DNA from: Chiloscyllium plagiosum
Lineage: Eukaryota
DNA length: 64,000 nucleotides
Direction: 5' to 3'
Assembly: GCF_004010195.1 (NCBI RefSeq)
Contig: NC_057719.1
Location: 27,773,458 to 27,837,457 of the forward strand
This document shows, piece after piece, positions 3,392 to 64,000 of this stretch. The notes beneath the pieces were generated by a model. That model had not been told where the DNA came from and searched no databases. It was given only the letters and a program-made list of their open reading frames with translations. The position numbers and the translations under genes were made by a program. How positions within the stretch are numbered: position 1 is the first letter of the stretch; each line of letters starts with the position of its first letter.

Positions 3392-3725
3392 AGGTAATTA
3401 TGCGGCATATTTGTGGCTGAGCATTTCACACTGGGTTTAATCACTGGTTTATGCAGAATTAACTAATGATAACTGCAGGGCCACTGATCTAACCAGCACT
3501 AAATTCAGCCTGGGTACATGCATGACCTGAGTGGGAACTAGATCAGGTTCAGGTGTGGTGCACTTTGTGGCTAAATAGATGCAACAGTCACCATGTCAGC
3601 TCACATATGGACAAATATCATTGATAAGATATTGAAGGAGAACCAACACCTTTAGAAATGCAGCCTAGCAGCAGCAGCCAATGCATAGAGGGGATAACAG
3701 TATAACAAAAGAAAATGGTTCTTAC

Positions 3726-3853
3726 TAAAAGATAGTGGAAAACTTCATGTCCCTCCAGATTGCAGAGAATTCCTCATAGCGCACACTTTCAGTCTGTTGG
3801 AAACGCAACAGCAGCCTCTCCAAGTCATTCTTCAATCCCGCTGTCAATGACAT
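3726..3853 (-). CDS. SNAPC1: snRNA-activating protein complex subunit 1 (SNAP43), first coding exon (128 nt); gene continues left of the window
   Basis: Manual translation MSLTAGLKNDLERLLLRFQQTESVRYEEFSAIWRDMKFSTIF+2 nt matches the recalled human N-terminus MGTPPGLQTDCEALLSRFQETDSVRFEDFTELWRNMKFGTIF. Donor gtaag is at 3725-3721 and acceptor ttgcag ends at 3859. Synteny with HIF1A fits. Confidence 0.95.
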
Positions 3854-30285: not shown

Positions 30286-30499
30286 TTTGAGGAAAGAACT
30301 CTTGCTTCACGACCTGTTGTCTCTGGCCCAAGAACAGAAATTGCTGAAGAAACTCGGCAGGTCTGGCAGTATCTGTGGAGAGAAAGCACAGTCCATGTTT
30401 CTAGTGCAGTAGCCCTTCTTCAGAAGTGCCAGATCCCCCTCCGGGGACTCAGAACTTTCTGGTTTTGTTTCTGATTTCCAGCTTGTTTCTCTTTTCTCT

Positions 30500-31100
30500 C
30501 GGGCTTTCAATTGGATGGATTCAAGTCTCGGGGGCGTGACCAGAACCGCCCATCGGCGCTGTGATTGGCTGAAGCGGGCTGCCCTGCTTTCTTCCTCATT
30601 TGATTGGAGGTCGCTTTTCCCGGCGGGTGCCCGGTGCTTCAGGGCAACAGGGGGCTGGGGGCTGCAGTGAACAGCAGTGGCTGGCGTTAGTAGCGGGAAT
30701 GGGCAGGGGGCTGGGGTAAGAATAGAGGGCTGCATGGGGTTTGGGCTGGGAAGCTGGAGGGATGTGATGGGGAGCGGGCTGGCGTGGTCGGTACTGTTTA
30801 CGGAATATTGAGGGTGAGTAACCCGGAAGACCGAAAGCAGTCCCTGGGGGAGAGAGCGTATAATGGGAGCAGAGTGAGTGGGTGCACGCCCTGATGCCAG
30901 AGCCCCGCAGCGGCAGGAGCTTACCCCGCTGCTTCCATTCCGGGAGAAAGCTCGGGGAACGGACAGGTCGGGGAGCTCGTTGGATCCAACAATTTGCAAC
31001 CACCGGCAAACAGAGGTATGATACAATCGGTCAGTCCTTGTCATTGTGCACTTAATGCATTTAGAATACGGAGTAAAGGAATTGGGTGTTGCTTGTTCCT
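30500..31100 (+). promoter_or_regulatory. Orphan CpG-island promoter
   Basis: ATTGG boxes at 30510, 30564 and 30603; GC box at 30531-30538; TTTTCCCGGC at 30615; ETS core CCGGAAG at ~30823; plus donors at 30716, 30814, 30874 and 31016; high CpG. Confidence 0.65.
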
Positions 31101-32089
31101 ATACGCGGCATATATGCCAAATATCGTCAAGTGAATCTTCAAATTCTCATATTAACGAGAATATGAGTCTGGTAAGTTATACAAGATTATTCGGTCAAAT
31201 TCCCCGCACCTGACTCATTAGAATCATTGTTTCTTACGAATAGCACGTCAGACTGTGCAAATAGAAAATGCTCCATGCTTTATAAATTACTTATAATCCA
31301 TAAAGCCGCTAGCAACACTCTTATCACTTGCACACCCCCCCCCCCCCCCCCACCGAACCATTCGGAACAATGTTAGGGACGCAAGGGTAGAAGGACAGGC
31401 TGTTGCAGACATGAATTAGTTATTTTGGATCTGTTTCCTGTGAACTGATATGAGTAAACTCTCATTAATAAAATTGCCGTTAGTGTCCTTGATATCTTTT
31501 AATAGCGTAACAAAGTTCAGCGGCTTGGTTTTCTAGTCATGCTAACCTGTCGTCCAAAAACATTCAATGGTAGCCCAGACCCATCTTCGATTTTATCGAG
31601 TTGCTAACTGGAATGTACATTTGAAATGTTTATTACCATAAGTTAAAATACAAACAATTCCAAAGTCATGTTGGAGTCGAAACATTAACTCTGTCTCTCT
31701 GCTTATCTCTGCTGCCTTCTGTTTGAACTTCTCCGGCAGTTTGTTTATATTTAAGACCTGCAGATTTTGCTTTGTTTGCTTTTGATTAAAATATAGATCT
31801 TCAGACTGCATTAACAAAAGGTCAAACATCTATGGAGAGTTAGTGGTAAACAACACCTTTATTACAGTAAATTGAATATCCCTTTTTCATGCCTTTATAA
31901 ATAGCAAGTTTTGAAGAATTTAACTATCTGAAGACTGGGATATTTTACAATGTTTGTTTGTGTTATTACAGTTTATCAAAGTGCAAATTGGTTGTCATAG
32001 TTTCACATTGTTTGCAGATCATATTGTCAACATGAATAGAAGCAGTCTGTTGGTTGGAATAGAAGCAGTCAGTTGATGGCAATCCCAAC

Positions 32090-32400
32090 TTTGAGTCAGA
32101 AGGTTGTGGGTTTAAGTCCCATTCAAGAGACTTCGGTGCAAAAATCGAGGCTGACACTCCAGTATGATATTGAGAGAGTGTATCACTGTAGGAAATGACC
32201 GTGTTTGCACTCCCAGGCTGATGCAAAAGATCTCTGGAGTCCAATGAAAAGCAAGGAGGTTATCTCTGCTACGTGAACCAATTTAATTTTAGCCACAATT
32301 AACATAATTAAAGCAAAAAGTATCCGATCATTATCATGTTTTTGAGAATATGCTGGGTACAAGATAGCTGGATCATTTCCTGTATTACAAAAATGATTTT
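32090..32400 (+). mobile_element. DeuSINE (SacSINE1/AmnSINE1-like), diverged
   Basis: tRNA-like head gagtcagaaggttgtgggtttaagtccc, then gctgacactccagt and Deu-domain-like sequence. Confidence 0.65.
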
Positions 32401-33249
32401 AACAAAAGCCTAAAATTTAGCTTAGTGCTTTAGATAATGTTCTTTTATTGATTATATCACATGTTTGCACGAAACAACTTGAAAATTGATATTTGTGATC
32501 CTTCAATGTGCTTATTATATGGTGCATAGTACCTGAACAATTCAGATATTTGACCTGAACTGGAAGATTTTTTTTGCAAGATGTAAAACCTTGATCCATC
32601 ACAGACAAATAATCCAATGTTTTACACAACCCACTTAGATGGGTGAAGAAGATTTGTCTTCAATTTTTTAAATACCAATTTTTATTCCTCTCCTTCCTTG
32701 CCTTTTTGCTGAAGTTAAGATTCATGATCACCAGTCTCATTGTGGTTTCTCGATCAAGTGGATATTTATAAGTCTTGATGGTAATTTTAAATTTTCCATT
32801 TATTATAAGCAATGAATAAAAAATTTAGTCCAGTTTCAGGAAACTATTTGACCATTGGGAGTATTATAGCTCAAGATGACACAATCCATCTTTTGTCCTT
32901 CTCCAGGGCAACGAGGAATGATGCAATAAATGTTGCCCAAGCCAGTGGCACCCATATTGTATGAATACATTTTTAAAAATATAATTTAACGAGGGATACC
33001 AAGATAGTTTCTCTGGCCTTTCTCTAATTTGAGTGTTCTTCATCATTAGTTAAAAGAACAGTAAAAGTGTCTGGGGGATCGATTTGTATTGCTGAGCTGT
33101 TCATTGCAGTTGGCCTATTGGGTAATGTGGAGATCATCATTACTCCGATCTGTTAACTGGTTGCTATTCAGGTTGATTCATTCGGTGTCAAAGGCATGAG
33201 ATTGGTTCAGGATTATAGCAACATTTTGGCAGGTTTTCACCCACCCTCA

Positions 33250-33525
33250 ATGCCTTTCAGATAAACTATTAACCCATAGTCTCCTTTGTCCTCTCGGATG
33301 GGTGTGAAAGATTCGATGACATGATTTTGAAAAAAGCAGAGGAGTTAGCTCCCTGATTGACTGAAGGGTAAATGTCGATGTCACAAAAAAGATTATTTGG
33401 TCATAATCACATTGCTGTTTTTGGGAGCTTGCAGTGCACAGATTCACTGCTGCAATTCCACATTACAACAGTGACTATACTTCATGAGTATTTCAAAGGC
33501 TGTAAAAGTACTTTTGGGACATTCA
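33250..33525 (+). mobile_element. DeuSINE Deu-domain and tail
   Basis: ggtcataatcacattgctgtttttgggagcttgcagtgcac..cattacaacagtgactatacttca. Confidence 0.7.
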
Positions 33526-33950
33526 TTCTATGTATTTAATTAGTTTAGCAGTGAGGAGTCACCTTTCCTAAGAGTAAATGGCCCTTGAATTTTGCCTTTA
33601 ATTCACAAAATATATAAAGTCTGTGAAAACCATGGTGATAGGTTCCTTTAATTTCTATCACCCAGTTATTAACTTGTATTAGTCCAAGTGCTTCAAGATG
33701 TGGATTTAGATTATTCAAACATCATTTGCTCTCGTTAATTTTCTTTTAAGAAGGTCACTAGCATGAAGTATAGAGAAATGCCTACATTGACTTTGAAAAG
33801 GCATTTTGATAAGGTTCCTCCAAGATTAGAAGCAAAATATATTGCACAGAATTGAAGATAATCTTGGGGCAATGGCTGGTAATTGGTTGGTAGGTTGGAG
33901 ACAAATGATAAAAGGAATGTACTCTGGTGATATGTAACAACTGCCCTCTC

Positions 33951-34050
33951 TAAACCTGAAAATGTGTTGCTGGAAAGTCGCAACAGGTCAGGCAGCATCC
34001 AAGGAGCAGGAGAATCGATGTTTCGGGCATGAGCCTTCTTCAGGAATTGA
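33951..34050 (-). mobile_element. Penelope-like hammerhead mini-element
   Basis: TSD gccctctc at 33943-33950 and 34051-34058. Minus strand reads CTGAAGA-AGGC-TCAT-GCCC-GAAA-CATC. Confidence 0.75.
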
Positions 34051-34214
34051 GCCCTCTCCAGAGGTCAACCTTCATTTTCCTTCTTGGATAAAGGAATAGA
34101 AAGTTGTATGTGAAAGTTGGCAGATGAGTCTAAAGTTAGAAAGCAAATCAAATGACAAAAATAGGAGTTGACAGTCACAAAGGTATGAGAGTGGGCAGAA
34201 CTGTGGCAATGAGG

Positions 34215-34530
34215 TTTAGATTAGATTCTTTACAGTATGGAAACAGGCCCTTCAGCCCAACAAGTCCACACCGACCCTCCGAAGAGGAACCCACCCGGAC
34301 CCATTTCCCTCTGACTAATATACCTACCGTTATGTGCAATTTAGCATGGTCAATTCACCTGACCTACACATCTTTGGACTGTGGGAAGAAACTGGAGCAC
34401 CCGGAGGAAACCCACACAGACACGGGCAGAACGTGCAAACTCCATACGGACTGCCGCCTGAGGCTGAAATTGAACCTGGGACCCTGGTGCTGTGAGGTAG
34501 CAGTGCTAACCACTGAGCCACCGTGCCGCC
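34215..34530 (-). mobile_element. HE1-type V-SINE inside an old CR1
   Basis: Complete SINE on the minus strand. Confidence 0.92.
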
Positions 34531-34905
34531 CAAGTGAGATCATCCATTTTGTACCTGAGAAAGATTAACAAATATAATTAATAATGAGAAACTAGGAACT
34601 GTGAAGGACTAAAAAGATAATACATTTTCCTGCACACAAATCATTTAAAATCTAGTGTACAGTGTTATGATCCCATCTGATGTTATTCCTAAGTCAGATC
34701 CCTGACAAGAACTTGCCTTGACAGATCATGTTTTGATTTCTTTTGATTTTTAAAAAAGTTGCTTCTTGCTAAGCACACAATGCTACAGATCTTTGCTTTA
34801 ATAATGTATCTGAAGGTTATCAACAAAAGAAAAGATAAAGTAGAATATACCCAACCATCTACTTCTGTTACAAATTCAAAGACTTTGAATGCTTCTGTAG
34901 AAGTA

Positions 34906-35569
34906 GCCATGATTTGGAGATGCCGGTATTGGACTGGGGTGTACAAAGTTAGAAATCACACAACACCAGATTATAATCCAACAGGTTTATTTGGAAGCAC
35001 TAGCTTTTTCAGCGCTGCTCCTTCCATCAGGTGGTTGTGGAGTATAAGTTCATAAGACACAGAATTTATAGCAAAAGTTTACAGTGTGATGTAACTGAAA
35101 TTATATATTGAAAAGACCTAGATTGTTTGTTAAGTCTCTCATCTTTTAGAATGAACGTGGTGGTTTCAGTTCTTTCATATATAAATTGCCGAACTTTTTA
35201 AAAGTTACATTCTCAAGTGACAGAATCAGTCTGACCATTGTGGCACAGACAGGCTCGCACAGGGCACCTCACACCTTCAATGCCGACATGACACCAATTA
35301 TTAAAGTTCACTTGAGAATGTAACTTTAAAAAAGTTCTGTGATTTACATATGAAAGAACTGAAATCAACATGTTCGTTCTAAAAGATAAGAGACTTAATA
35401 AACAATCCAAGTCTTTTTCAATATATAAATTGTTACATCACACCGTAAATATTTGCTATAAATTCTGTGTCTTATGAACTTATACTGCACAACCACCTGA
35501 AAGCTAGTGCTTCCAAATAAACCTGTTGGACTATAACCTGGTGTTGTGTGATTTCTTTTTAACTCTGTA
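34906..35569. mobile_element. Penelope-like fold-back element, ~270-bp inverted arms
   Basis: The left arm (~34940-35220) is the reverse complement of the right arm (~35308-35569). Each arm carries a damaged hammerhead. Confidence 0.85.
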
Positions 35570-35950
35570 AAAGTACTATCTCACTAATCCTAAAACTCCT
35601 ATATAAATTTTTAAAAAAGACAGGTTTTTGTACAAAGTTCAACACCCTTTGATACAGTATCCAAAGTAACACTCGTGCAATACTCTCATCAAAGTACTGT
35701 CTCTAACAAATCATTGGGTTATGCCATTGGGACTTCAAATTTTAGACTGGAACTGTAGATAGCACCTTCCTGGAACTATTTCACACTAACTTAAATGAAC
35801 TGAATTGTAAGAAACCTCTTCAAGGTTTTATGCCAACAGTCCTGATCTGGGACTAATGCTTCACACTAGGGTAATCTAGTTCACTATAATTCCGTTCCTT
35901 CCAATTGCACTTGTTCATAGTGCTATACTATTCCAAGGTCGTCTTAGAAC

Positions 35951-36016
35951 GACTCAAAACTCGACTCAAAACTCGACTCAAAACTCGACTCAAAACTCGA
36001 CTCAAAACTCGACTCA
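35951..36016. repeat. Perfect 12-bp tandem repeat (GACTCAAAACTC)x5.5
   Basis: Read directly; no mismatches between units. Confidence 0.97.
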
Positions 36017-36369
36017 GCTATGGGTGTTTCTCTTAACTTAAAAAGAATTATGTTTCAGAAGTCTCGAACACCTTAAAGCCCCACTTTATATCTAAAATAA
36101 ACAAAAGTTTATTAGTGGTGCACACTAAGTAGAATCTCAAAAACTGTTTTCAAAGAACTCACCATGGCTACAGAAATACTTTACAAGTTAATTCAGACAG
36201 AAAATATACTAGTTACTAACTCAAAATCCAGAGACCCAAACTAACATATTTTCAAAATTATCATTTTATTGTATAAATCTCACAGTTTACATCACAGCAG
36301 ATACAAAGGCAGTCAAAAGACTAATTGCAAGCTATCCTTATGTTGTACTTTTGACTCATGAGAATATTT

Positions 36370-36950
36370 TAGAATATTGAGCATTACAGCGCATTACAGG
36401 CCCTTCGGTCCTTGATGCTGCGCTGACCTGTGGAACCAATCTGAAGCTTATCTATCCTACTATATTCCATTTTCATCCATATGTTTATCCAATGCCGATT
36501 TAAATGCCCTTAAAGTTGGTGAGTCTACTACTGTTGCAGGTAGGGTGTTCCATACCCCTACTACTGAGTAAAGAAACTACCTTTCACATCTGTCCTATAT
36601 CTATCACCCCTCAAATTAAAGCTATGTCCCTTTTTGTTAGCCACTACCATCCGAGGAAAAAGGCTCTTACTGTCCACCCTATTTAACACTCTCATTTTAT
36701 GTTCAATTAAATCACCTCAAACTTTTTCTCTCTAATGAAAATAGCCTCAAGTCCCTCAGTCTTTCCTCCTAAGACCTTCACTCCGTACCAAGCAACATCC
36801 TAGTAAATCACCCCTGAACCCTTTCCAATGCTTCCACATCCTTCCTGTAATGTGATGACCAGAACTGTATGCAATACTCCAAGTGCAGCCATGCCAGAGT
36901 TTTGTACAGCTGCAACATGACCTCGTGGCTCTGAAACTCAATCCCTCTAC
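36370..36950 (-). mobile_element. CR1 3' fragment
   Basis: CR1 tail and C-terminal ORF2 remnants (ORF 36756-36941). Confidence 0.88.
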
Positions 36951-38459
36951 CCTTTACTAGAGTTACACAAGGTTAAATTACGAGGCCTAGTTGCATAAAC
37001 TTTGGCTGATTACTAAGTGTTCAGATGGTGGCCTGATCTAATTTACGATCTTTTGAAATGAAGTGTTGCATACAGTGAACTCGAATAATCCATCTGAAGG
37101 GGATGCAATCTTAAAATTACAATAAGGCCATTCAGGAGTGAAGCAATTTTTCACGAAGTTGTAGAAATCTGTTACCCTTCCCTAAAATGCTACGGACAAT
37201 TGCTTAGTTAAAATATTACGCCTACAAGTGAAATATTTTCGATAGAAGTATTTAAGGAGTGGATACAAGGCAGGGAGTTGAAGTACAAATTAGCCACAAT
37301 CTGACTCAATAGCTGGACAGGCTTGAGGGACTGAAGGCTCACTCTTGTTCAATTGTTCTTGTAAAATACCAATTAGCTAACGTCAGGTTTATGCTTTAAC
37401 TTTTCTACTTTTGCTTTAGTGATTATCTTACGATGTCACTTGTTTCGTTGCCTTTTCAAAGTGCTCCGATTGGGATTAAATCTAAACAAAGAATTAATTA
37501 AACTTTAATTGCAGGTTGTTTCTGAATCTGAAAATTGTGGGTTTGTTGATTTTAGGAGTTCATGATCACTGTTACCTAATGCAGGCAGTAAATGATTTAT
37601 TGCCATGTTCTATTAGTTTATTGAGTTTCTTAAGTGGCAATTTAATTAGGATACATTAGTTAATTATATAAAGTACACAACTATGACAATTGGAGATGGA
37701 CAGTCAGGCTATCAGGCAGAATATTTTCATCTCGTTAAAGGTTTGGGGGACAACATTGTTCTCTCTAGTTGTGGTTTTCAGGAACTCTTCCCAGGTCTCC
37801 CTCCTCCTTCTGAACAGGTTTCCGCCTGCCTGCTGAAGACTGTTCGATGAAATTATTCTCTGGAAATACTCCCCAAAGAACTCCCCTCTGCATTTATTGC
37901 TATATCATATTTCTAGGGGAGGATATTGTCTATGTGTCAACCAATTTTCTGAACCATTTTGACCAATGGCTAAGGGGCAACAACTTAATATGTTGAATGA
38001 TCACTGTCCCCTTCATCGGAGAGTTAGTTTACTATTCTAAGAACAAATACTTCTTTCTTTTGAAAACAGTACACCAATAATAGGGTCTATTTAGCACCAG
38101 ATGAATTAAATGGGCATCATGATCTCGGTTTCTCATAATTCCTTTGCTTTCATATATTACAATTTTGGAAAGTTGATTAGTGCTGGAGAAATCTCATGCT
38201 ACACAAAGTACTAGGAAAATTTTTAAGGGACCCTAATATTCAACAGGTTCAAACCCCTTTCTAAGACTGAAGTATTGTACATAATGTAGGCTGATACTTT
38301 GTGCAGTGCTGCACTAGCACAAGCTGTCTTTTAGCTAGGCCGCTCAGGATGGATGGTAGCCTGGTCCACTGAGTTCATGCCTCACCAAAATCCCACAAAG
38401 GACCATGGATATATTTACAGATTGATAGAACTCAACTGATTCACAATTGTCCCTTACTT

Positions 38460-38690
38460 GGTTTGCAGCTACATATGATTGGGATTGGTTTGCCATCCAG
38501 AGTGATGCTAACAACACTGGTTCAATTACTGCATCGACTGAGATTACTATGAACTCTCCTCTTTTTTCCCCCCCCCGCCACTTGCCTGAGGCATGGTGAC
38601 CCTCGGGTTAAACCACCACCAGTTGACTCTCCTAACCTCTCTGAGAGCAGCCATATGCTCTGGTAAGACTATGGTGACATTATCTTTTAT
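38460..38690 (+). mobile_element. tRNA-derived SINE (second family)
   Basis: ggttcaatt B-box remnant, then cctgaggcatggtgaccctcgggttaaaccaccaccagt..gactatggtgac; same family as 41075-41296. Confidence 0.6.
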
Positions 38691-39047
38691 CACATAGCAT
38701 AGTTGACTCTTAATGGCTTTATAAATTTAATTGACATGTACTGCAGGTCAGAGTGTTCTCAATGTTGCCAACAATAAATTTTTAAATAACATAAAAAAGA
38801 TTCTGCATATTCACTAAGAGCAGGGGCTTCTATTGGACATCCTGACCAAATAACTTGCCGCAACTGCCAAGGATTTTAAAGCCAGCTTGTCAAATGTATA
38901 AAAGTTCCTTTTTCACTATGCACTCACCTATGTGCCAATTATGTACTATCAGTTACTTGTGGTCTGTTCATACTGCACATTTACCATTGGTGCAATTTGG
39001 GTCTGAGGTCTAAAACAGCAAAGCGAGACTAAGATTCCTTTGTCCAG

Positions 39048-39113
39048 GTACTCGGGCTGTCTAACACCGCAACTGTAGAGCACTTGTCAACTTCTAAGCA
39101 TTTCAGTCACATG
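39048..39113 (+). other. Candidate internal exon (66 nt) of an unidentified plus-strand transcript
   Basis: Branch-like gactaag, acceptor attcctttgtccag, donor ATG|GTAAGT, in non-repetitive sequence. Confidence 0.45.
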
Positions 39114-40199
39114 GTAAGTGATGGGGTGATTCCTGGGATGAAGGCGTTGACAGATGAGTCAATTATTCATTAGAGTTTAAAAGAATGTGTGATGACCTTA
39201 TTGATACATACAAGATTCTGAGTGAATGAGTGTGGCTTGACAAGGTAGTTTTCACCAGTGGAGGCATCTCAAACTTGGGATCATACACACAGAATAATGG
39301 GACACACTAATATAAAACTGGGATGTGAAGGAATTTCTTCTCCCAGAATACTCTATCCCAGAGAGTTTGTGGAAGCTAGACACAAGAAGTATTTCTAGAG
39401 GAAGTAGATAATTTTTTTAAAATATTGGGAAGTTGAAGGCCATAATAAGTTGGCACAAAAGAGGAATTGAAGTCTGGAACAGATCGGCCGTGATCTTATT
39501 GAATGGAGGTGCAGGCTTGAGCGGCTGAATGGTCTTCTATCCTTATTTCTTTTGTTCTCAGGTACAACATTCTGTCTGGCAACCTCTTTGGCCTTCATCG
39601 CTAGGAGTACATTACAGGTGTTGTTCCTTCAGATTTTAATTGTTGATTAAACTGTGAATTTAGCAGGGTATTTTAAAAATATTTTTCCTTTCAGTGAAAT
39701 CTTTATTTCCCCTTCTTTTACACTCTGGGCTGATTTGACAATAGATGTCCTACTTCAGATTCCCTTCTCAGCTTCTCTTATAAAAAAAAATCAACCTGAT
39801 TTGATGAGAGAAAGGGACAATTAGGTGTCCAGTTCCAAGCCTCGGATTGCACCTTTTGTCAGCTAGTCCACTTAACAATTCGCCAGAGTACAAACAATTG
39901 AACCCAAAGGTACACAGGCGAATCTAACTAATGGCATTGTTACCCATAATCTCCAAGTATAACTCATAATATCTCACTTGAGAGATGCAACCACAGTATG
40001 TACAAAACATAAGGTTCCCAAATCAGTCTCTGTTGAGTTAGTGTAACATTTGACAGGTTTTCAAGACTGGCAAGGGAAAGTCTTTTTGGTTTCTTGATAA
40101 TTGGAGAATCCCTTCCCGGAAAAGAGACTGGTTGTTTGCAATTTATATAACCACTTCATGAGATGGATGCATTTTCGACCCTATATGGAAAAGGATGAA

Positions 40200-40830
40200 C
40201 CTGTCCATTATTTTTTTGAACGGTGACTGACGTGTATTTTAGACACTGCATTGATGTTGTGTCTAAATACAGCTGGATTGCAGTCGGCGAGTGGTGCCCC
40301 TAAAATAAGGGGTTGGCCAAGACCCACTGCTATTTCCAAAGGTGACCCTAACCTCCGCAGTGCGTTCAAATCTGCCGTGCAAAGATAAAATAGTGTACAT
40401 TTCTAGTGATCTCGTAATTGCAGTCACCCCGCTTGTTTGAGGAACTCGCTGTAATCAGACCGTGTGAGGAGGCACGTACGCATCGTTTGAGTGATTTGCA
40501 AAGTGGTATTCCTTGTAGCTGCTGTGCGGAGAGCGGGACGTGATTGCAAGCACTTGCCTGATGGGGGTGTGCCCTTTGGCTGCAGCGTGATTCATGTGGA
40601 AATCCTTTTTACCGGAAAATAACATGAACACCACCACCTCCACCGACTATATATTAACTGGAAATGGAAACGCTCGTTTCCTTTTTGCATCCCTCAAACC
40701 ATCAGACAACACAGTTGGGCTCGGCAAGGCATTTTTTAAAAAAAGCTGGATTGTAAGTATAGCTGTGAGAAAGTAAGTATTTTTTAATTTTAAAAATCGC
40801 ATTTACTTAAATGTTCGGTAAGTAACTAAT
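40200..40830 (+). promoter_or_regulatory. HRE-rich TATA promoter with first-exon donors, antisense to HIF1A
   Basis: RCGTG cores at 40230-40234, 40473-40478 (TACGTG on minus), 40538-40542 and 40585-40589; ETS-like ACCGGAAA at 40611; TATATATT at 40648-40655; GTAAGT at 40753, 40773 and 40818; CpG-rich. Confidence 0.65.
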
Positions 40831-41074
40831 GTGCAGAGTTTCAGTCGGTGGAAACTATAAATTTATTCTATATGAGCGAACCTGGAATAGCGCAGCAGCC
40901 GATATTCTCTTGTGTTAAGATGTTCCTTTCAAAAGCACTTTAACAGAACTGTTCATGTGCACGGTATCCTTTCCTAAGTCGGTGCTATTTTCTACAGCTG
41001 CGTGTGGTGCCTTATAATGTTCGAGGGACTTTTGTAAATCCGCTGAAAGAGCAAGTTTATCATTCTCAAATGTT

Positions 41075-41296
41075 GTGTCGCCATAGTCTTACGAGACCAT
41101 AGGGTCTGCTCTCTCAGTGAGAGAGAGAGAGAAACGACTGGTGATGATCTAACCTGAGGGCCACCAGACCTCATGCGAAGGAAGAGTTTGAGAAGGAGAG
41201 TCCTTCATGGTGATCTCAAACCGGTGATGGGAATTGAACCCACGCTGTTGCCATCGCGCCGCAGTGTAAACCAACAAGATAGCCAACTGAGCTAGA
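41075..41296 (-). mobile_element. tRNA-derived SINE (second family)
   Basis: Minus head tagctcagttggcta and B box gggttcaattccc. Confidence 0.7.
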
Positions 41297-41699
41297 GCGA
41301 TTTCTCAAAAGTAACTATAAGTAAAATACATAGAAACACGAATATTTTGTTCAGTACATTGGCAATTGTAGATGGATGTAAATGTACCTTTTTATGTTTC
41401 ATGTTTTAAAAAAAATGGGAGCATCAAAACCTTACTGAAGTTTGAAAGAAAACCATGTTACCCATTAAATCCTTTGGAAATGTTCACAAGTTTTACCCAC
41501 ACGGGACTGCGGCACCCAGTCCTGATCCGAATTCTGCTCCAGTGCCAGAACTAGGAGTCACATCATTTTGGGTATTGTGGACTGCTCACTCCTGTTAACC
41601 ACATCTCAGAAAAAAAGAGTAATTGTTGGGTTCTGTGGCATTATCCTGTTCCTTTGGTGTAGTGACAGTCAATATCAAGACAGAATATAAGGGAGAAAA

Positions 41700-41905
41700 A
41701 CCAAAATAACTGAGGATGCTGTAAATCAGAAGCAAAAACAGAAGTTGTTGGAAAAGCTCAGCAGGTCTGGCAGCACTTCAGAAAAGAAATCTAAGATATC
41801 GTTTCAGGTCCAGTGACCCTCGGAACTTCTCTAAGGAAGGGTCACCGGACCCGAAATGTTAACTGATTTCTCTTTGCAGATGCTGTCAGACTTGCTGAGA
41901 TTTTA
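41700..41905. repeat. Palindromic Penelope-like mini-element
   Basis: Inverted arms around CTAAGGA-AGGGTC-ACCG-GACCC-GAAA-TGTT (decayed hammerhead). Confidence 0.7.
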
Positions 41906-42217
41906 CAAAATATAAGGGATCTTTTTATGGTGTAATAGTAATGTCCTTATCTTTGGGCTGGAAGCTCGATGGTTAAGATCCACCTCAGGACATGATGGTA
42001 ATAGAGTTGTCGCTTAAATGCATCTAATTGATTTGTTTGACTGTCAATTTGTAAAGCTTTCTAAAACACCTTTGGCAGGTAATAAGATGGGAGAGCTTCC
42101 TGGCCAGCCAGTGGTACCTGCAATACAACAGCCTCCCCACGTTAAAAGATTCCATGTGCAGGTTCTTGGCACAAAATCTCTCCCCCAACCTGAGGGATGC
42201 CCCCACACTGACACACC

Positions 42218-44648
42218 ATAGAACATAGAACAATACAGGCCCTTCGGCCCACGATGTTGTGCCGAACATTTGTCCTAGCTTAAGCACCTATCCATGTATC
42301 TATCCAGTTGTCGCTTAAAGGTCACCAATGATTCTGACTGCCACTCCCACAGGCAGCGCATTCCATGCCCCCACCACTCTCTGGGTAAAGAACCTACCNN
42401 NNNNNNNNNNNNNNNNNNNNNNNNNNNNNNNNNNNNNNNNNNNNNNNNNNNNNNNNNNNNNNNNNNNNNNNNNNNNNNNNNNNNNNNNNNNNNNNNNNNN
42501 NNNNNNNNNNNNNNNNNNNNNNNNNNNNNNNNNNNNNNNNNNNNNNNNNNNNNNNNNNNNNNNNNNNNNNNNNNNNNNNNNNNNNNNNNNNNNNNNNNNN
42601 NNNNNNNNNNNNNNNNNNNNNNNNNNNNNNNNNNNNNNNNNNNNNNNNNNNNNNNNNNNNNNNNNNNNNNNNNNNNNNNNNNNNNNNNNNNNNNNNNNNN
42701 NNNNNNNNNNNNNNNNNNNNNNNNNNNNNNNNNNNNNNNNNNNNNNNNNNNNNNNNNNNNNNNNNNNNNNNNNNNNNNNNNNNNNNNNNNNNNNNNNNNN
42801 NNNNNNNNNNNNNNNNNNNNNNNNNNNNNNNNNNNNNNNNNNNNNNNNNNNNNNNNNNNNNNNNNNNNNNNNNNNNNNNNNNNNNNNNNNNNNNNNNNNN
42901 NNNNNNNNNNNNNNNNNNNNNNNNNNNNNNNNNNNNNNNNNNNNNNNNNNNNNNNNNNNNNNNNNNNNNNNNNNNNNNNNNNNNNNNNNNNNNNNNNNNN
43001 NNNNNNNNNNNNNNNNNNNNNNNNNNNNNNNNNNNNNNNNNNNNNNNNNNNNNNNNNNNNNNNNNNNNNNNNNNNNNNNNNNNNNNNNNNNNNNNNNNNN
43101 NNNNNNNNNNNNNNNNNNNNNNNNNNNNNNNNNNNNNNNNNNNNNNNNNNNNNNNNNNNNNNNNNNNNNNNNNNNNNNNNNNNNNNNNNNNNNNNNNNNN
43201 NNNNNNNNNNNNNNNNNNNNNNNNNNNNNNNNNNNNNNNNNNNNNNNNNNNNNNNNNNNNNNNNNNNNNNNNNNNNNNNNNNNNNNNNNNNNNNNNNNNN
43301 NNNNNNGGCAAGTCCTACCCTTCACAAATCCGTGCTGGCTGTCCCTAATCAAGCAGTGTCTTTCCAGATACTCATAAGTCCTATCCCTCAGTACCCTTTC
43401 CATTACTTTGCCTACCACAGAAGTAAGACTAACAGGCCTGTAATTCCCGGGGTTATCCCTATTCCCTTTTTTGAACAGGGGCACAACATTCGCTACTCTC
43501 CAGTCCCCTGGTACCACTCCCGTTGCCAGTGAAGACGAGAAGATCATTGCCAACGGTACTGCACTTTCCTCTCTTGCTTCCCACATAATCCTAGGATATA
43601 TCCCGTCAGGCCCGGGGGACTTGTCTATCCTCAAGTTGTTCAAAATGTCCAACACATCTTCCTTCCTAACAGGTATCTCTTCTAGCTTACCAGTCCATTT
43701 CACACTCTCCTCTTCTACAATACGGTCCCTCTCGTTCGTAAATACTGAAGAGAAGTACTTGTTCAAGACCTCTCCTATCTCTTCCGACTCAATACACAGT
43801 CTCCCACTACTGTCCTTGTTCGGACCTACCCTCGTTCTCGTCATTCTCAGGTTTCTCACATACGCATAAAATGCCTTGGGGTTATCCTTGATCCTATCTG
43901 CCAACGATTTTTCATGCCCTCTCTTAGCTCTCCTTATCCCTTTCTTCAGGTCCCTTCTGGCTATCCTGTATCCCTCCACTGCTCTGTCTGAATCCTGTTT
44001 CCTCAACCTTATGTAAGCCTCCTTCTTCCTCTTTACCAGACATTCAACCTCTCTCGTCAACCAAGGCTCCCTCACACGACCATTTCTTTCCTGCCTGATA
44101 GGTACATACATATCATGGACACGTCGTATCTGCTCTTTGAAGAAGTTCCACATTTCCACCACATCCTTCCCTGACAGCCTATGCTCCCAACGTATGCTCC
44201 TCAAATCCTGCCTTACAGCATCGTAATTTCCCTTCCCCCAATTATAAAATCTACCTTGTTGTGCGCACCCATCTCTCTTCATAACCAAGGTGAAAGTCAC
44301 AGAATTGTGGTCACCATCACCAAAATGTTCACCCATTAACAAGCCCACCACTTGTCCCGGTTCGTTTCCAAATACCAAATCCAATATGGCCTCCCCTCTG
44401 GTTGGACAATCTACATACTGAGTTAGAAAAGCTTCCTGGACACACTGCACAAACACCGCCCCGTCCAATCTACTTGATCTAAAGAGCTTCCAATCAATAT
44501 TTGGGAAGTTGAAATTGCCCATGACTACTACTCTGTGGCTTCTGTACCTTTCCAAAATCTGTTTCCCAATCTGTTTCTCCACATCTCTGCTGCTATTGGG
44601 GGGCCTATAGTAAACACCCAACAAGGTGACTGCTCCTTTCCTATTTCC
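42218..44648 (-). mobile_element. Young 5'-truncated CR1 LINE; ORF2 uninterrupted up to the gap
   Basis: Open frame 44624-43307 from GVYYRPP through NFNFP, GDHNS and NYRPVSLTS to QHGFVKG; tail (catagaa)n at ~42218. Confidence 0.96.
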
Positions 44649-50238: not shown

Positions 50239-52036
50239 CTATCTTAATATTCCTTAAATTATTGACAGAGATATTGCTGGACAACATTGGCAGTTGTGTT
50301 CTAAATTGTGCAATATTATTAGATGTCAACAAGTTTTTAATACTATCTTATTGTATTTTTAAGGTTTTTAGTTTGAGATTGATTGATTGAAAAGTTAATT
50401 TGGATGATGTACTAAATTGAGTTTTTTGTCTAAAACTAGACAGACCAATGTTTGTTACTAGAAGAAAGTGAGGACTAGAGATCAGAGTCAAAAAGTTATG
50501 CCTGAAATGTCGACTCTCTTGCTCCTCGGATGCTACCTGACCTGATGTGCTTTTCCAGCACCACACTTTTTGATAATGTTTGGTATCTGGTCTGTACTGA
50601 ATTTTCTGCATGAGTACTACAGTTGAATTTAGCACTCCTAAACTTATCGAGAGGGCAAGGAAGGGTAATCAGTCATTGTTTGAGATTTCTTTCTATCTTT
50701 ATGTGTAAATATATATGGAATACTAATGTCTGAGGAAAGGGTTGGATAAGTTATAATTTTTACCTTCATCTGATCAAACTGCCTATTGACATCTGTTGTT
50801 CATTTTTATGCATAGCGATCAACCTGTAAGGAGCTGACGTGGCTAATGGGATCCAAAGGACATGCTGAATTTTTGAAACATACTCTTGCATGTAACTTTT
50901 TCACAAGAGAATGGGCTAAGCACTGTTTTCCCTCCAGAAACTTGCTAAGTTAGATATCTGCTTGATCTCAAAAATAATCTACGTAGAATTCTGTGAAGAA
51001 CTATCCTTGCATGGAAATCTCATTATCATGCACGTCTCTTCAGATTGCCAGACGATCTCAATTTGTACAGCCATACGTTTTGATGGGAGAAAAACAGTGG
51101 CTTGCCAGCTACCATCCAGCAGTGGTAACTTATTTGTTCTTTTACTATCAGAGAATTGCTTTTAGTGCTGCATAGGAAGACTAAAAGGATGCCTGGAAAG
51201 ATAGCTGTGTGTTTGGTCATGAAAATGTGCTTTGGTTCTTGGTAAGGAAGGGTATGTCTTCAGCTTGGATAAGCTCCATGCAACAGTGTTTTAAGGTGAT
51301 GAATTTTTAATTAAGTAAATGTTATTGATATACTTAATTGTATTTGATAACTTTTTAAATAATTTATTCCCTCTAATAACATTAGTTGGTTTCCTCTCAT
51401 GTTTGCAATATATGGTTGGATTATCAAGCTGACATTGCAAATTTATATTAGTATGCTAAATCTATTTCCCAAAGCGCACACCTGCATGTTCACACCCACA
51501 ATAAAACATTCTCTATACTTTTTAAAGAAATCAACAGGGCCCTGTATTATTTAGTTTTGATTGTTTGTTTGTAAAGCCTCCGTTGCAAATAAGGAATAGT
51601 TTAATGCATCTCTCTGTAGAAAAAAAAGTCACTTTGATATTCTCTAATACTTGTAGCATGTGAAATATCTTGCATTTAAAGGTTTAAAATTGGCTCTTGT
51701 TTTTAATCTCTGTCGTATAGCATTCCTCAGGGGAAGCATTTCCTCAGGCCATGTGAGTAAATTTATCAAAGCTCCCCTCTGGTTTCTGAACAATTATATT
51801 TTTACAGTCTTCATTCTGAAATTGTTCCAGAAGCTTACTCTGCTTCAAAACACTGCAGTGGCTTTTGTGGCACATGGGCCGCTATGCTTGGTTACTTCAA
51901 GAATCAGTCCGTATTTGTAACAATCTGGCCATTGGTTGCACTTCAAGCCTACTCTAGATTATGAAATTTATTGCCCCAGATATTTTCCACCATGTTTTCT
52001 ATGAAAACTGGGAAGAGTGGGGCATGATTCAGATCA

Positions 52037-61369: not shown

Positions 61370-62655
61370 GAGCCTGGTCCACATATAATGTTTATTGATG
61401 TAATAAAACAATACAGTTAGTGTTAGATCCAACCACAAACAGTAAAAGATGACTGAGCATACGTTACATTTGCACGAGCAAAAGTGAGACTATGAAACCA
61501 TTTCAGTCAAGAACTGATTTGGGGCTGGGAATGGTAAGTTGGAAGAAGTCAAGAAAGGAAAATAACATACAATATAATCTACCTGATACTTTAATTGGGA
61601 TTTGCAAGTGACAGGGTGCTTCAGATTCAAGACAGAAGGGGTAACCAAACAGACTAGTCTTTTTCTAATACAATGCTATTTCAGTTACATTTACACTGGA
61701 TATTACTACCTACACATTGCAGAATAAGCAGCAACATTTATACTTAACGTATTGCTATGGTATTATAGTATGAACTTGTACAACTATAGTCAGATTTACC
61801 TGTGCTGACAATCAAGAGACTAATTATCAATAAAATGTTAAACAGCACAATAAAGATATTGTCCACATTCAATATTTCCAACCATCAGCTACATGACAGG
61901 AAGTCAGTCCTCATAGCTGACTAACACAAGCTGTTCTAGATTTTAAAAATGAAAATTAAAGTGAATATTTGTGTATGCATTCCACACTTAACATGATTTT
62001 TACTAAATAACTAAAAAAATCATTGTAGCTTTATCCTCTTAAAAACTAGATTTATAACTGCAAAACATACTGCATAAAGGACTGCTGGTACTTCTTAAGA
62101 AAATATATTTTGTGCAATTGTGGCTACAATTAACAGCTGGCAAAGCAACAATGCTTGTCAGGCAAGTATCCTAAAGTACGTGAAATATCGAAGCATCATA
62201 GACAATCTTGCCCATTCAAGTTTAAAGAATGGCCACAATTCTGACTAGAAAAAAGGTGCTACGTTCCCTTTAAGATTTGCTCAACGTCTTTGATTGAAAA
62301 CCATTATAAATTAGACACTTACGTAAAATGTTATCAATGCTCTTTAAAATAGACCATAAACTCATTTACATATGATGTGTCACTCATATAATCGATCCTC
62401 CAAATGCCATCCTAGGCTTGTCCATGTGCCTAAAAGCATCAAGTATAAAGATGATATTTTATAGAATTACAGACCTAGACCAATACTGCAAATAAACTGC
62501 AGGTCATGGATGGGGTCAGTGGTGGAGTACTGCTAACAGAAAAACTTCAGTACTGTAGCCAGGCTTCTATAACAATCAGATTTAGAAAATATAAATAACT
62601 GCTTTGGGTGATGGGGGCTTCACCATTGTCTGTTATTTTGTTCAGCCCTGTGAAC
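61370..62655 (-). other. HIF1A: HIF1A 3' UTR (~1.3 kb)
   Basis: Repeat-free AT-rich stretch after the stop codon. Blocks match recalled mammalian HIF1A 3' UTR sequence (gtagccacaattgcacaa..taccagcagt; tttgtggttggatctaacactaactgtattgtttt). Confidence 0.85.
61391..61396 (-). terminator. HIF1A: HIF1A polyadenylation signal AATAAA
   Basis: Minus strand ttacatcAATAAAcattatatgtggaccagg parallels the recalled human mRNA end. Confidence 0.85.
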
Positions 62656-62807
62656 TTAGTTGATTTGATCCAATGCTCTGAGAACTTCTTCACCCTGAAG
62701 CAAGGTTCTGTTGCCTTGGATAGGTGCATTCACTTCACAGTCGTAATTGGTGAGTGTTGGCAAGCTACTGCTCTCTGCTGAGTGAGTGAGAAGCCTTGAC
62801 ACTATAT
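62656..62807 (-). CDS. HIF1A: Hypoxia-inducible factor 1-alpha, last coding exon (C-terminal transactivation domain)
   Basis: After acceptor ctttcag (phase 1) the exon translates (D)[55 protein letters not shown] is HIF-1a type (HIF-2a has NVP), and SNAPC1 is adjacent as in human. Confidence 0.97.
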
Positions 62808-63699: not shown

Positions 63700-64000
63700 A
63701 ATTCAGTTAATACAAGCTGATGACAGAGCAGGAGACATTGTTTACTTGATTTTAGTAAAACCTTTATTTATTAGTCTGCTGTGCAGACCCTTATCAAAAA
63801 GTTAGATCATGTGGGATTTAGGGTGAGCTTGCCAATCGGATGCAAAATTAATTTGATGGTAGGAGACAGAAGGTAGTTGTGGAGGTTTGTTTTTATTTTG
63901 GACTGGAGGCCTGTGACCAGTGGTTGGTATTGTATCCACTTTTGTCATGTTATATAAAATGATTTGGAAGAGAATTTTGGAAGCAGGTAGTAAGTTTGCA
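63700..64000 (+). mobile_element. Old CR1 RT fragment
   Basis: Decayed DFSK-, RRQKVVV- and INDL..SKFA-coding sequence. Confidence 0.75.

Follow-up and report, generated by a model that had tools for sequence, protein, structure and literature searches.

A spliced antisense RNA across HIF1A in the shark Chiloscyllium plagiosum and its candidate HIF-responsive promoter

Introduction

The closest described systems are the antisense RNAs of human HIF1A. As set out in the accessible sections of Downes et al. (2023, PMC10630634), the long human HIF1A-AS starts ∼2.8 kb past HIF1A and carries a HIF-bound HRE; both HIF1A and HIF2A induce it, and through its transcription it acts in cis as a repressor of HIF1A. 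The average vertebrate phastCons score of its promoter is given as 0.49. The same source places antisense RNA at ∼40% of human coding loci and inverse regulation at only ∼1%. The first exon of HIF1A-AS3 is reported to lie beyond HIF1A and to be conserved in placental mammals; the later exons of this RNA, some of them derived from SINE or LINE elements, are in HIF1A introns, and when the RNA was knocked down, HIF1A fell in one cell type (accessible text of PMC12310967). Mutation of the HREs in the promoter of HIFAL is reported to abolish hypoxic induction, and the authors describe a positive feedback (accessible text of PMC7910558). A further RNA, HIF1A-AS2/aHIF (NR_045406.1), is antisense to the HIF1A 3' end. 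In the openly accessible literature that we searched, we found no HIF1A antisense RNA from a non-mammalian animal (shark or fish).

Results

The window analysed here is a stretch of 64,000 nucleotides of the Chiloscyllium plagiosum genome (NC_057719.1, positions 27,773,458 to 27,837,457, forward strand); extended coordinates comprise the window and loci L002-L021. The position of HIF1A was obtained by mapping P0005, a protein named C. plagiosum HIF1A by its source. The gene lies on the minus strand in 14 coding stretches from 62659 to 99657 (extended coordinates), nine of which are 98–100% identical to the query while the others overrun into introns; exon 1 and its CpG island are near 122.6 kb (extended coordinates). 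The last exon occupies 61391..62807 on the minus strand, with coding sequence at 62807-62656 followed by the 3' UTR up to a poly(A) hexamer at 61396-61391, so that a previous reading of the letters alone (the sequence-only reading) was right to place a minus-strand HIF1A ∼20 kb from the block discussed below. By eye, RCGTG/E-box and CRE-like words stand close to the first exon in the HIF1A promoter (L007:8850-8960).

The flanking marker gene on the other side is SNAPC1, also on the minus strand, with its first coding exon at 3716..3853 (ATG at 3853) and a CpG island at 8.4-9.2 kb. In human, too, SNAPC1 is the next gene beyond HIF1A. Elsewhere in the genome, an intronless SNAPC1-like match with stops (G000:C15:202592-203158) is likely a retrocopy. 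Decayed LINE-type remnants, pieces of reverse transcriptase/endonuclease sequence, fill the interval between the two genes (at 14-25 kb and at 43.3-46.6 kb) and may account for the greater distance in shark than in human. Pfam families were matched by 6 of the 32 long open reading frames of the window, all retroelement-type, and no structured RNA of Rfam was matched at gathering score in the window.

Within this interval lies a low-GC, CpG-retaining, single-copy block at 40200..41100. Its CpG observed/expected ratio is 0.83-0.92 (0.83 at 44% GC), compared with a median of 0.23 over 800 windows spanning ∼255 kb; only three promoter-type islands are richer in CpG, those at the promoters of HIF1A and SNAPC1 and one at 30.5-31.3 kb. 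The block is likely an unmethylated promoter region. A search of the genome with 40150-41100, which passes over very common words, returns one match, the block itself, and within the window the block has no self-match before 41076, where repeats begin. The sequence-only reading of a CpG-rich and repeat-free block is thus borne out. We also considered the block as a transposable element, the case which that reading had named as damaging to it, and rejected it: there is no further copy in the genome (with the same caveat on common words), and the read depth over the block is flat at 11-13 in two sequencing runs, X1 and X3. Variants in the block are few (40442, 40470, 40508 and 40641, from X1, X3 and X2), and none falls inside an RCGTG core.

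The sequence RCGTG is the HIF-binding core. Motif search of 40200-40830 recovered every word named in the sequence-only reading at its position: four RCGTG cores spanning 360 bp, at 40230..40234 (+), 40473 (−, TACGTG), 40538..40542 (+) and 40585..40589 (+, where the RNA contig described below begins); an ETS-like CCGGAA at 40612..40617 (+); a TATA-like TATATATT at 40648..40655 (+); and three GTAAGT words at 40753..40758, 40773..40778 and 40818..40823 (+), 105-170 bp 3' of 40648. As a cluster, the four cores are not statistically unusual. When 40200-40830 is shuffled 5000 times with its dinucleotides preserved, 15.6% of the shuffles contain four or more cores (mean 2.1; P 0.16), and the window has two more 365-bp clusters with four cores (16135 and 22143). 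The number of cores in the block is not above chance, and CpG content accounts for the cluster. The cluster of GTAAGT donors is unusual: three are reached in 0.08% of 5000 shuffles of the same sequence (P 0.0008, a post hoc test).

Evidence of transcription was sought in public sequencing data. The 17 runs listed include none recorded as RNA, and five were examined: X1, X2, X3, X7 and X8. At the 88% likeness used for the first read placement, the tables of joints and loose ends were swamped by repeats. Two of the five are uninformative, since nothing from X7 (∼2 in 100 reads sampled) aligned to 39890-41050, nor anything from X8 to 30450-42220. X1 was tried as an RNA source and rejected: it covers all 30 bins of 30450-42220 at a flat, DNA-like depth of 10-16 in unique bins, and we treat the break of its contig at 40751 as an artefact because adapter letters follow there. 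X2 is RNA-like according to the guess of the tool. Several unique bins in the neighbourhood have no X2 reads at all, and within 39890-41050 the run yields only two contigs, together covering 40585-40752. The first (194 nt, depth 5.7) spans 40585-40752 with one inserted base after 40641; the second (151 nt, depth 2.1) spans 40708-40752 with one other letter. The RNA evidence in total consists of these two low-depth contigs from one run. X2 is labelled as organism B, unlike the other runs; since it hardly differs from the window in its contigs at the block and at 30760-31016, it provides no cross-species evidence.

Both X2 contigs depart from the genome at 40752, immediately 5' of the first GTAAGT, and continue with 25 and 106 foreign letters, while a contig of the DNA-like run X3 continues straight through this position. 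We conclude that the GTAAGT at 40753..40758 is a used splice donor of a plus-strand exon at 40585..40752, ∼20.6 kb past the end of HIF1A. Splicing had been predicted at 40752, 40772 and 40817; the first site is used in both contigs and the other two, preceding the second and third GTAAGT, in neither. X2 has no contig over 40753-41050.

The foreign letters lead to two acceptors. A single consensus was printed for both loose ends, with an agreement of 0.68, and we resolved it as a mix of two records on the assumption that ties in the consensus go to the alphabetically lower letter, the junction letters being thus deduced rather than read per record. Plain best-match search with the consensus as printed places at most 19 of 30 letters. 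For the longer record, one site in the window fits without violation: 51044 (+), preceded by a pyrimidine tract and CAG, with 11 of 11 differences in the required direction and 0.04 such sites expected by chance. The pattern of the shorter record is absent from the window and has one fit in the next 200 kb, at L004:2777, likewise preceded by a pyrimidine tract and CAG. Across the 3.56-Gb genome this pattern matches once (C10:27860231-58), and its reversed control not at all. Among 7258 downstream YAG sites, 51044 and 86777 (extended coordinates) form the sole pair with zero violations, and none of 2000 shuffled consensuses gave any pair, even with up to two mismatches allowed. The six columns common to both records predict an agreement of 0.683, against the reported 0.68.

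The distal acceptor lies between HIF1A exon 6 (84482) and exon 5 (87781), that is, in intron 5. The intron of the major isoform accordingly runs from 40753 to the end of the window at 64000 and on to G000:C10:27860234 (L004:2777), ∼46 kb in all including a gap of 908 N. The first 14 letters of the exon beyond it fall in a common repeat fragment, and plus-strand AATAAA words follow at 86889 and 87142. The downstream exon of the minor isoform is placed at 51044..51125 (+), its 3' end being guessed from a donor-like word at 51126. Just past it, the sequence at 51152-51400 has a 95% identical copy at G000:C23:19342302-19342554. One of the two contigs thus joins HIF1A intron 5 and the other joins 51044, and the GT..AG intron ends assign the RNA to the plus strand. 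We are highly confident that the RNA is a real spliced antisense RNA, and that the block holds an exon of this convergent transcript, whose precursor crosses HIF1A from exon 15 to exon 6. The main prediction of the sequence-only reading, plus-strand RNA spliced at 40752 and reaching beyond 61.4 kb into HIF1A, is realised in the X2 contigs.

The block probably comprises the promoter and first exon of this RNA, with the true 5' end at or before 40585, because of its retained CpGs, the donor cluster and the lack of an upstream joint. Contig ends in X2 do not mark transcription starts. The longer contig begins at 40585, so that the TATA-like word follows 63 nt and the predicted start ∼90 nt downstream. 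Since it begins upstream of both the ETS-like and the TATA-like words, which therefore lie inside the transcribed exon, the TATA layout does not describe the longer RNA, and the TATA-like word is not its core promoter. The TATA/ETS arrangement with a start at ∼40675-40685, some 30 nt past the TATA word, does not fit this contig, RNA already covering 40585-40752, although a second, shorter transcript may start there.

The first letter of the contig is the G of a CAG (40583-40585), and this allows another reading: the exon could be internal to a longer plus-strand lncRNA, with an acceptor at 40585/40586, that starts from the CpG island at 30.5-31.3 kb with its CCAAT and GC boxes. An X2 contig at 30760-31016 does end at a plus-strand donor, and contigs may stop at graph branches whose other arm is not shown. 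We regard this as improbable. No loose end precedes 40585; the pyrimidine tract there is weak (10 of 20, where the two acceptors in use have 14 of 20 and 15 of 20); the last letter of the 30.8-kb contig, the G at 31016, fits a next exon that begins with G, whereas 40586 is C; and the block retains CpGs of its own. As an observation in its own right, the region 30500-31300 is a second CpG island with CCAAT-type and GC-box words, and its X2 contig (depth 12.9) ends one base into the donor, marking another, unannotated transcript start in the interval from SNAPC1 to HIF1A.

Contrary to the sequence-only reading, the exon is not devoid of an open reading frame: a frame of 53 codons from the ATG at 40594 stays open through it. 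In the spliced forms the longest frames reach 80-100 codons, and a small protein of ∼76-100 codons could be read from them. We consider such a gene very improbable. The 1-nt insertion after 40641 in the X2 contig shifts the frame, the two isoforms yield different C-termini, and none of the three plus-strand frames tested matches a Pfam family. Among 1.84 billion proteins there was one weak match, to a repeat protein of 1512 aa, with 24 bits for each stretch. To judge from its sequence, the transcript is likely non-coding.

The best HRE candidate in the block is the TACGTG-containing element at 40472..40479 (−). It has the same eight letters in the same orientation as the human HIFAL promoter element tested by mutation, the match in orientation assuming that the paper prints the promoter in sense (accessible text of PMC7910558). 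The 8-letter word occurs on the same strand in 27 of 5000 shuffles and three times in 255 kb. TACGTG on either strand is found in 21% of shuffles, and the extra letters past it are a modest gain. Such a match is what any strong HIF site looks like, and would back function more than descent. A CA-rich word stands 6-8 nt beyond the element; in the EPO enhancer, CA repeats are reported to follow the HIF site (accessible text of PMC7379665), while HIF is said to occupy only ∼1% of such words (accessible text of PMC7385969). HIF may bind the element at 40472-40479, and we lean towards an antisense RNA that is HIF-responsive and hypoxia-induced.

The resemblance to EPO, together with the low RNA depth, would also suit a HIF-bound distal enhancer of HIF1A or SNAPC1, of which the spliced RNA is a by-product without repressive role. 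This is quite improbable, in that the spliced RNA runs in one direction across 46 kb and X2 has no contig upstream of 40585 within 39890-41050.

Discussion

The shark RNA most resembles human HIF1A-AS3/HIFAL (NR_144368.1) as described in the accessible text of PMC7910558 and PMC12310967. In both, the first exon (in shark, the probable first exon) lies past the HIF1A 3' end on the opposite strand, transcription passes over the HIF1A gene body, and the RNA is spliced to later exons in HIF1A introns. The later exons of the human RNA are in part repeat-derived, and the shark intron-5 acceptor sits in a repeat fragment. The first exons are of similar size, at least 168 nt in shark and ∼200 nt in human as counted from the printed sequence, and the first tested HRE of HIFAL has eight letters and their orientation in common with the shark element. 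The two differ in the distance to HIF1A (∼20.6 kb in shark, ∼2.8 kb in human), in the point of entry (intron 5 in the shark isoform, the first intronic regions in human), and in the additional intergenic exon of the shark at 51044. By eye, no long similarity is seen between the shark exon and the human first exon and primers, as far as the human sequence is printed. Short words shared with the human RACE 5' end and a ChIP primer were discarded: two of them, 6-mers, occur 131 and 188 times in 255 kb, and their order conflicts.

The long human HIF1A-AS likewise converges on much of HIF1A from a downstream promoter bearing an HRE, and it is by analogy with this RNA that we propose interference in cis for the shark; the human RNA is described as mainly unspliced and nuclear, whereas the shark RNA is seen as spliced contigs only (accessible text of PMC10630634). 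HIF1A-AS2/aHIF differs in that its mature RNA overlaps the HIF1A last exon. The shark precursor crosses the same region, including the last exon at 61391..62807, but the resolved acceptors lie elsewhere, at 51044 and in intron 5, and none of the exons resolved for the shark overlaps the HIF1A 3' UTR.

On this model, stabilised HIF would bind near 40472 and switch on the antisense promoter; polymerase would then traverse HIF1A exons 15 to 6 head-on and reduce HIF1A elongation, with delayed negative feedback, as modelled on human HIF1A-AS, as the outcome. Because neither resolved acceptor lies in a HIF1A exon, the effect would likely come from the act of transcription rather than from pairing of RNAs. 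The feedback may have either sign, since there are also reports that HIFAL and HIF1A-AS3 increase HIF output in human (accessible text of PMC7910558 and PMC12310967). Taken as a whole, our guarded preference goes to a chain, drawn by analogy, in which the block serves as promoter and first exon of an antisense transcript that is likely non-coding and likely induced by HIF, and that would damp HIF1A in cis.

Its main rival, which we judge unlikely though well within consideration, is the oxygen-independent promoter of a shark-specific lncRNA, whose overlap with HIF1A is incidental and whose RCGTG words are a by-product of CpG retention. It gains from a core count within chance, from the abundance of antisense transcription in human (accessible text of PMC10630634), from the lack by eye of long similarity to the human exon, and from an intron-5 acceptor in a repeat fragment. 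Against it, interval, direction and exon-in-intron layout are as in human HIF1A-AS3, and an identical 8-letter element stands in identical orientation upstream of the exon.

Returning to a HIF-driven antisense RNA, we give common ancestry with human HIF1A-AS3 slightly less than even chances. More tentatively still, the promoter itself may have been inherited from the shark-human ancestor, with position, direction and HRE kept and the downstream exons rebuilt from lineage-specific repeats.

HIF1A antisense RNAs have been described in human cells, and their sequence conservation has been traced through placental mammals (accessible text of PMC12310967). A spliced convergent shark RNA of the same layout suggests that transcription as such, controlled by an HRE, has been kept and not the sequence of the RNA, and thereby bears on the dispute between cis-interference and RNA-scaffold models. 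Exact junctions and one element are now available for testing, both in existing RNA-seq data of sharks and in bamboo and epaulette sharks under hypoxia. The bamboo shark group tolerates hypoxia. If the ancestry is true, feedback by antisense transcription at HIF1A would belong to the core oxygen response of jawed vertebrates rather than being a feature of mammals or cancer cells, and it could be tuned in hypoxia-tolerant carpet sharks.
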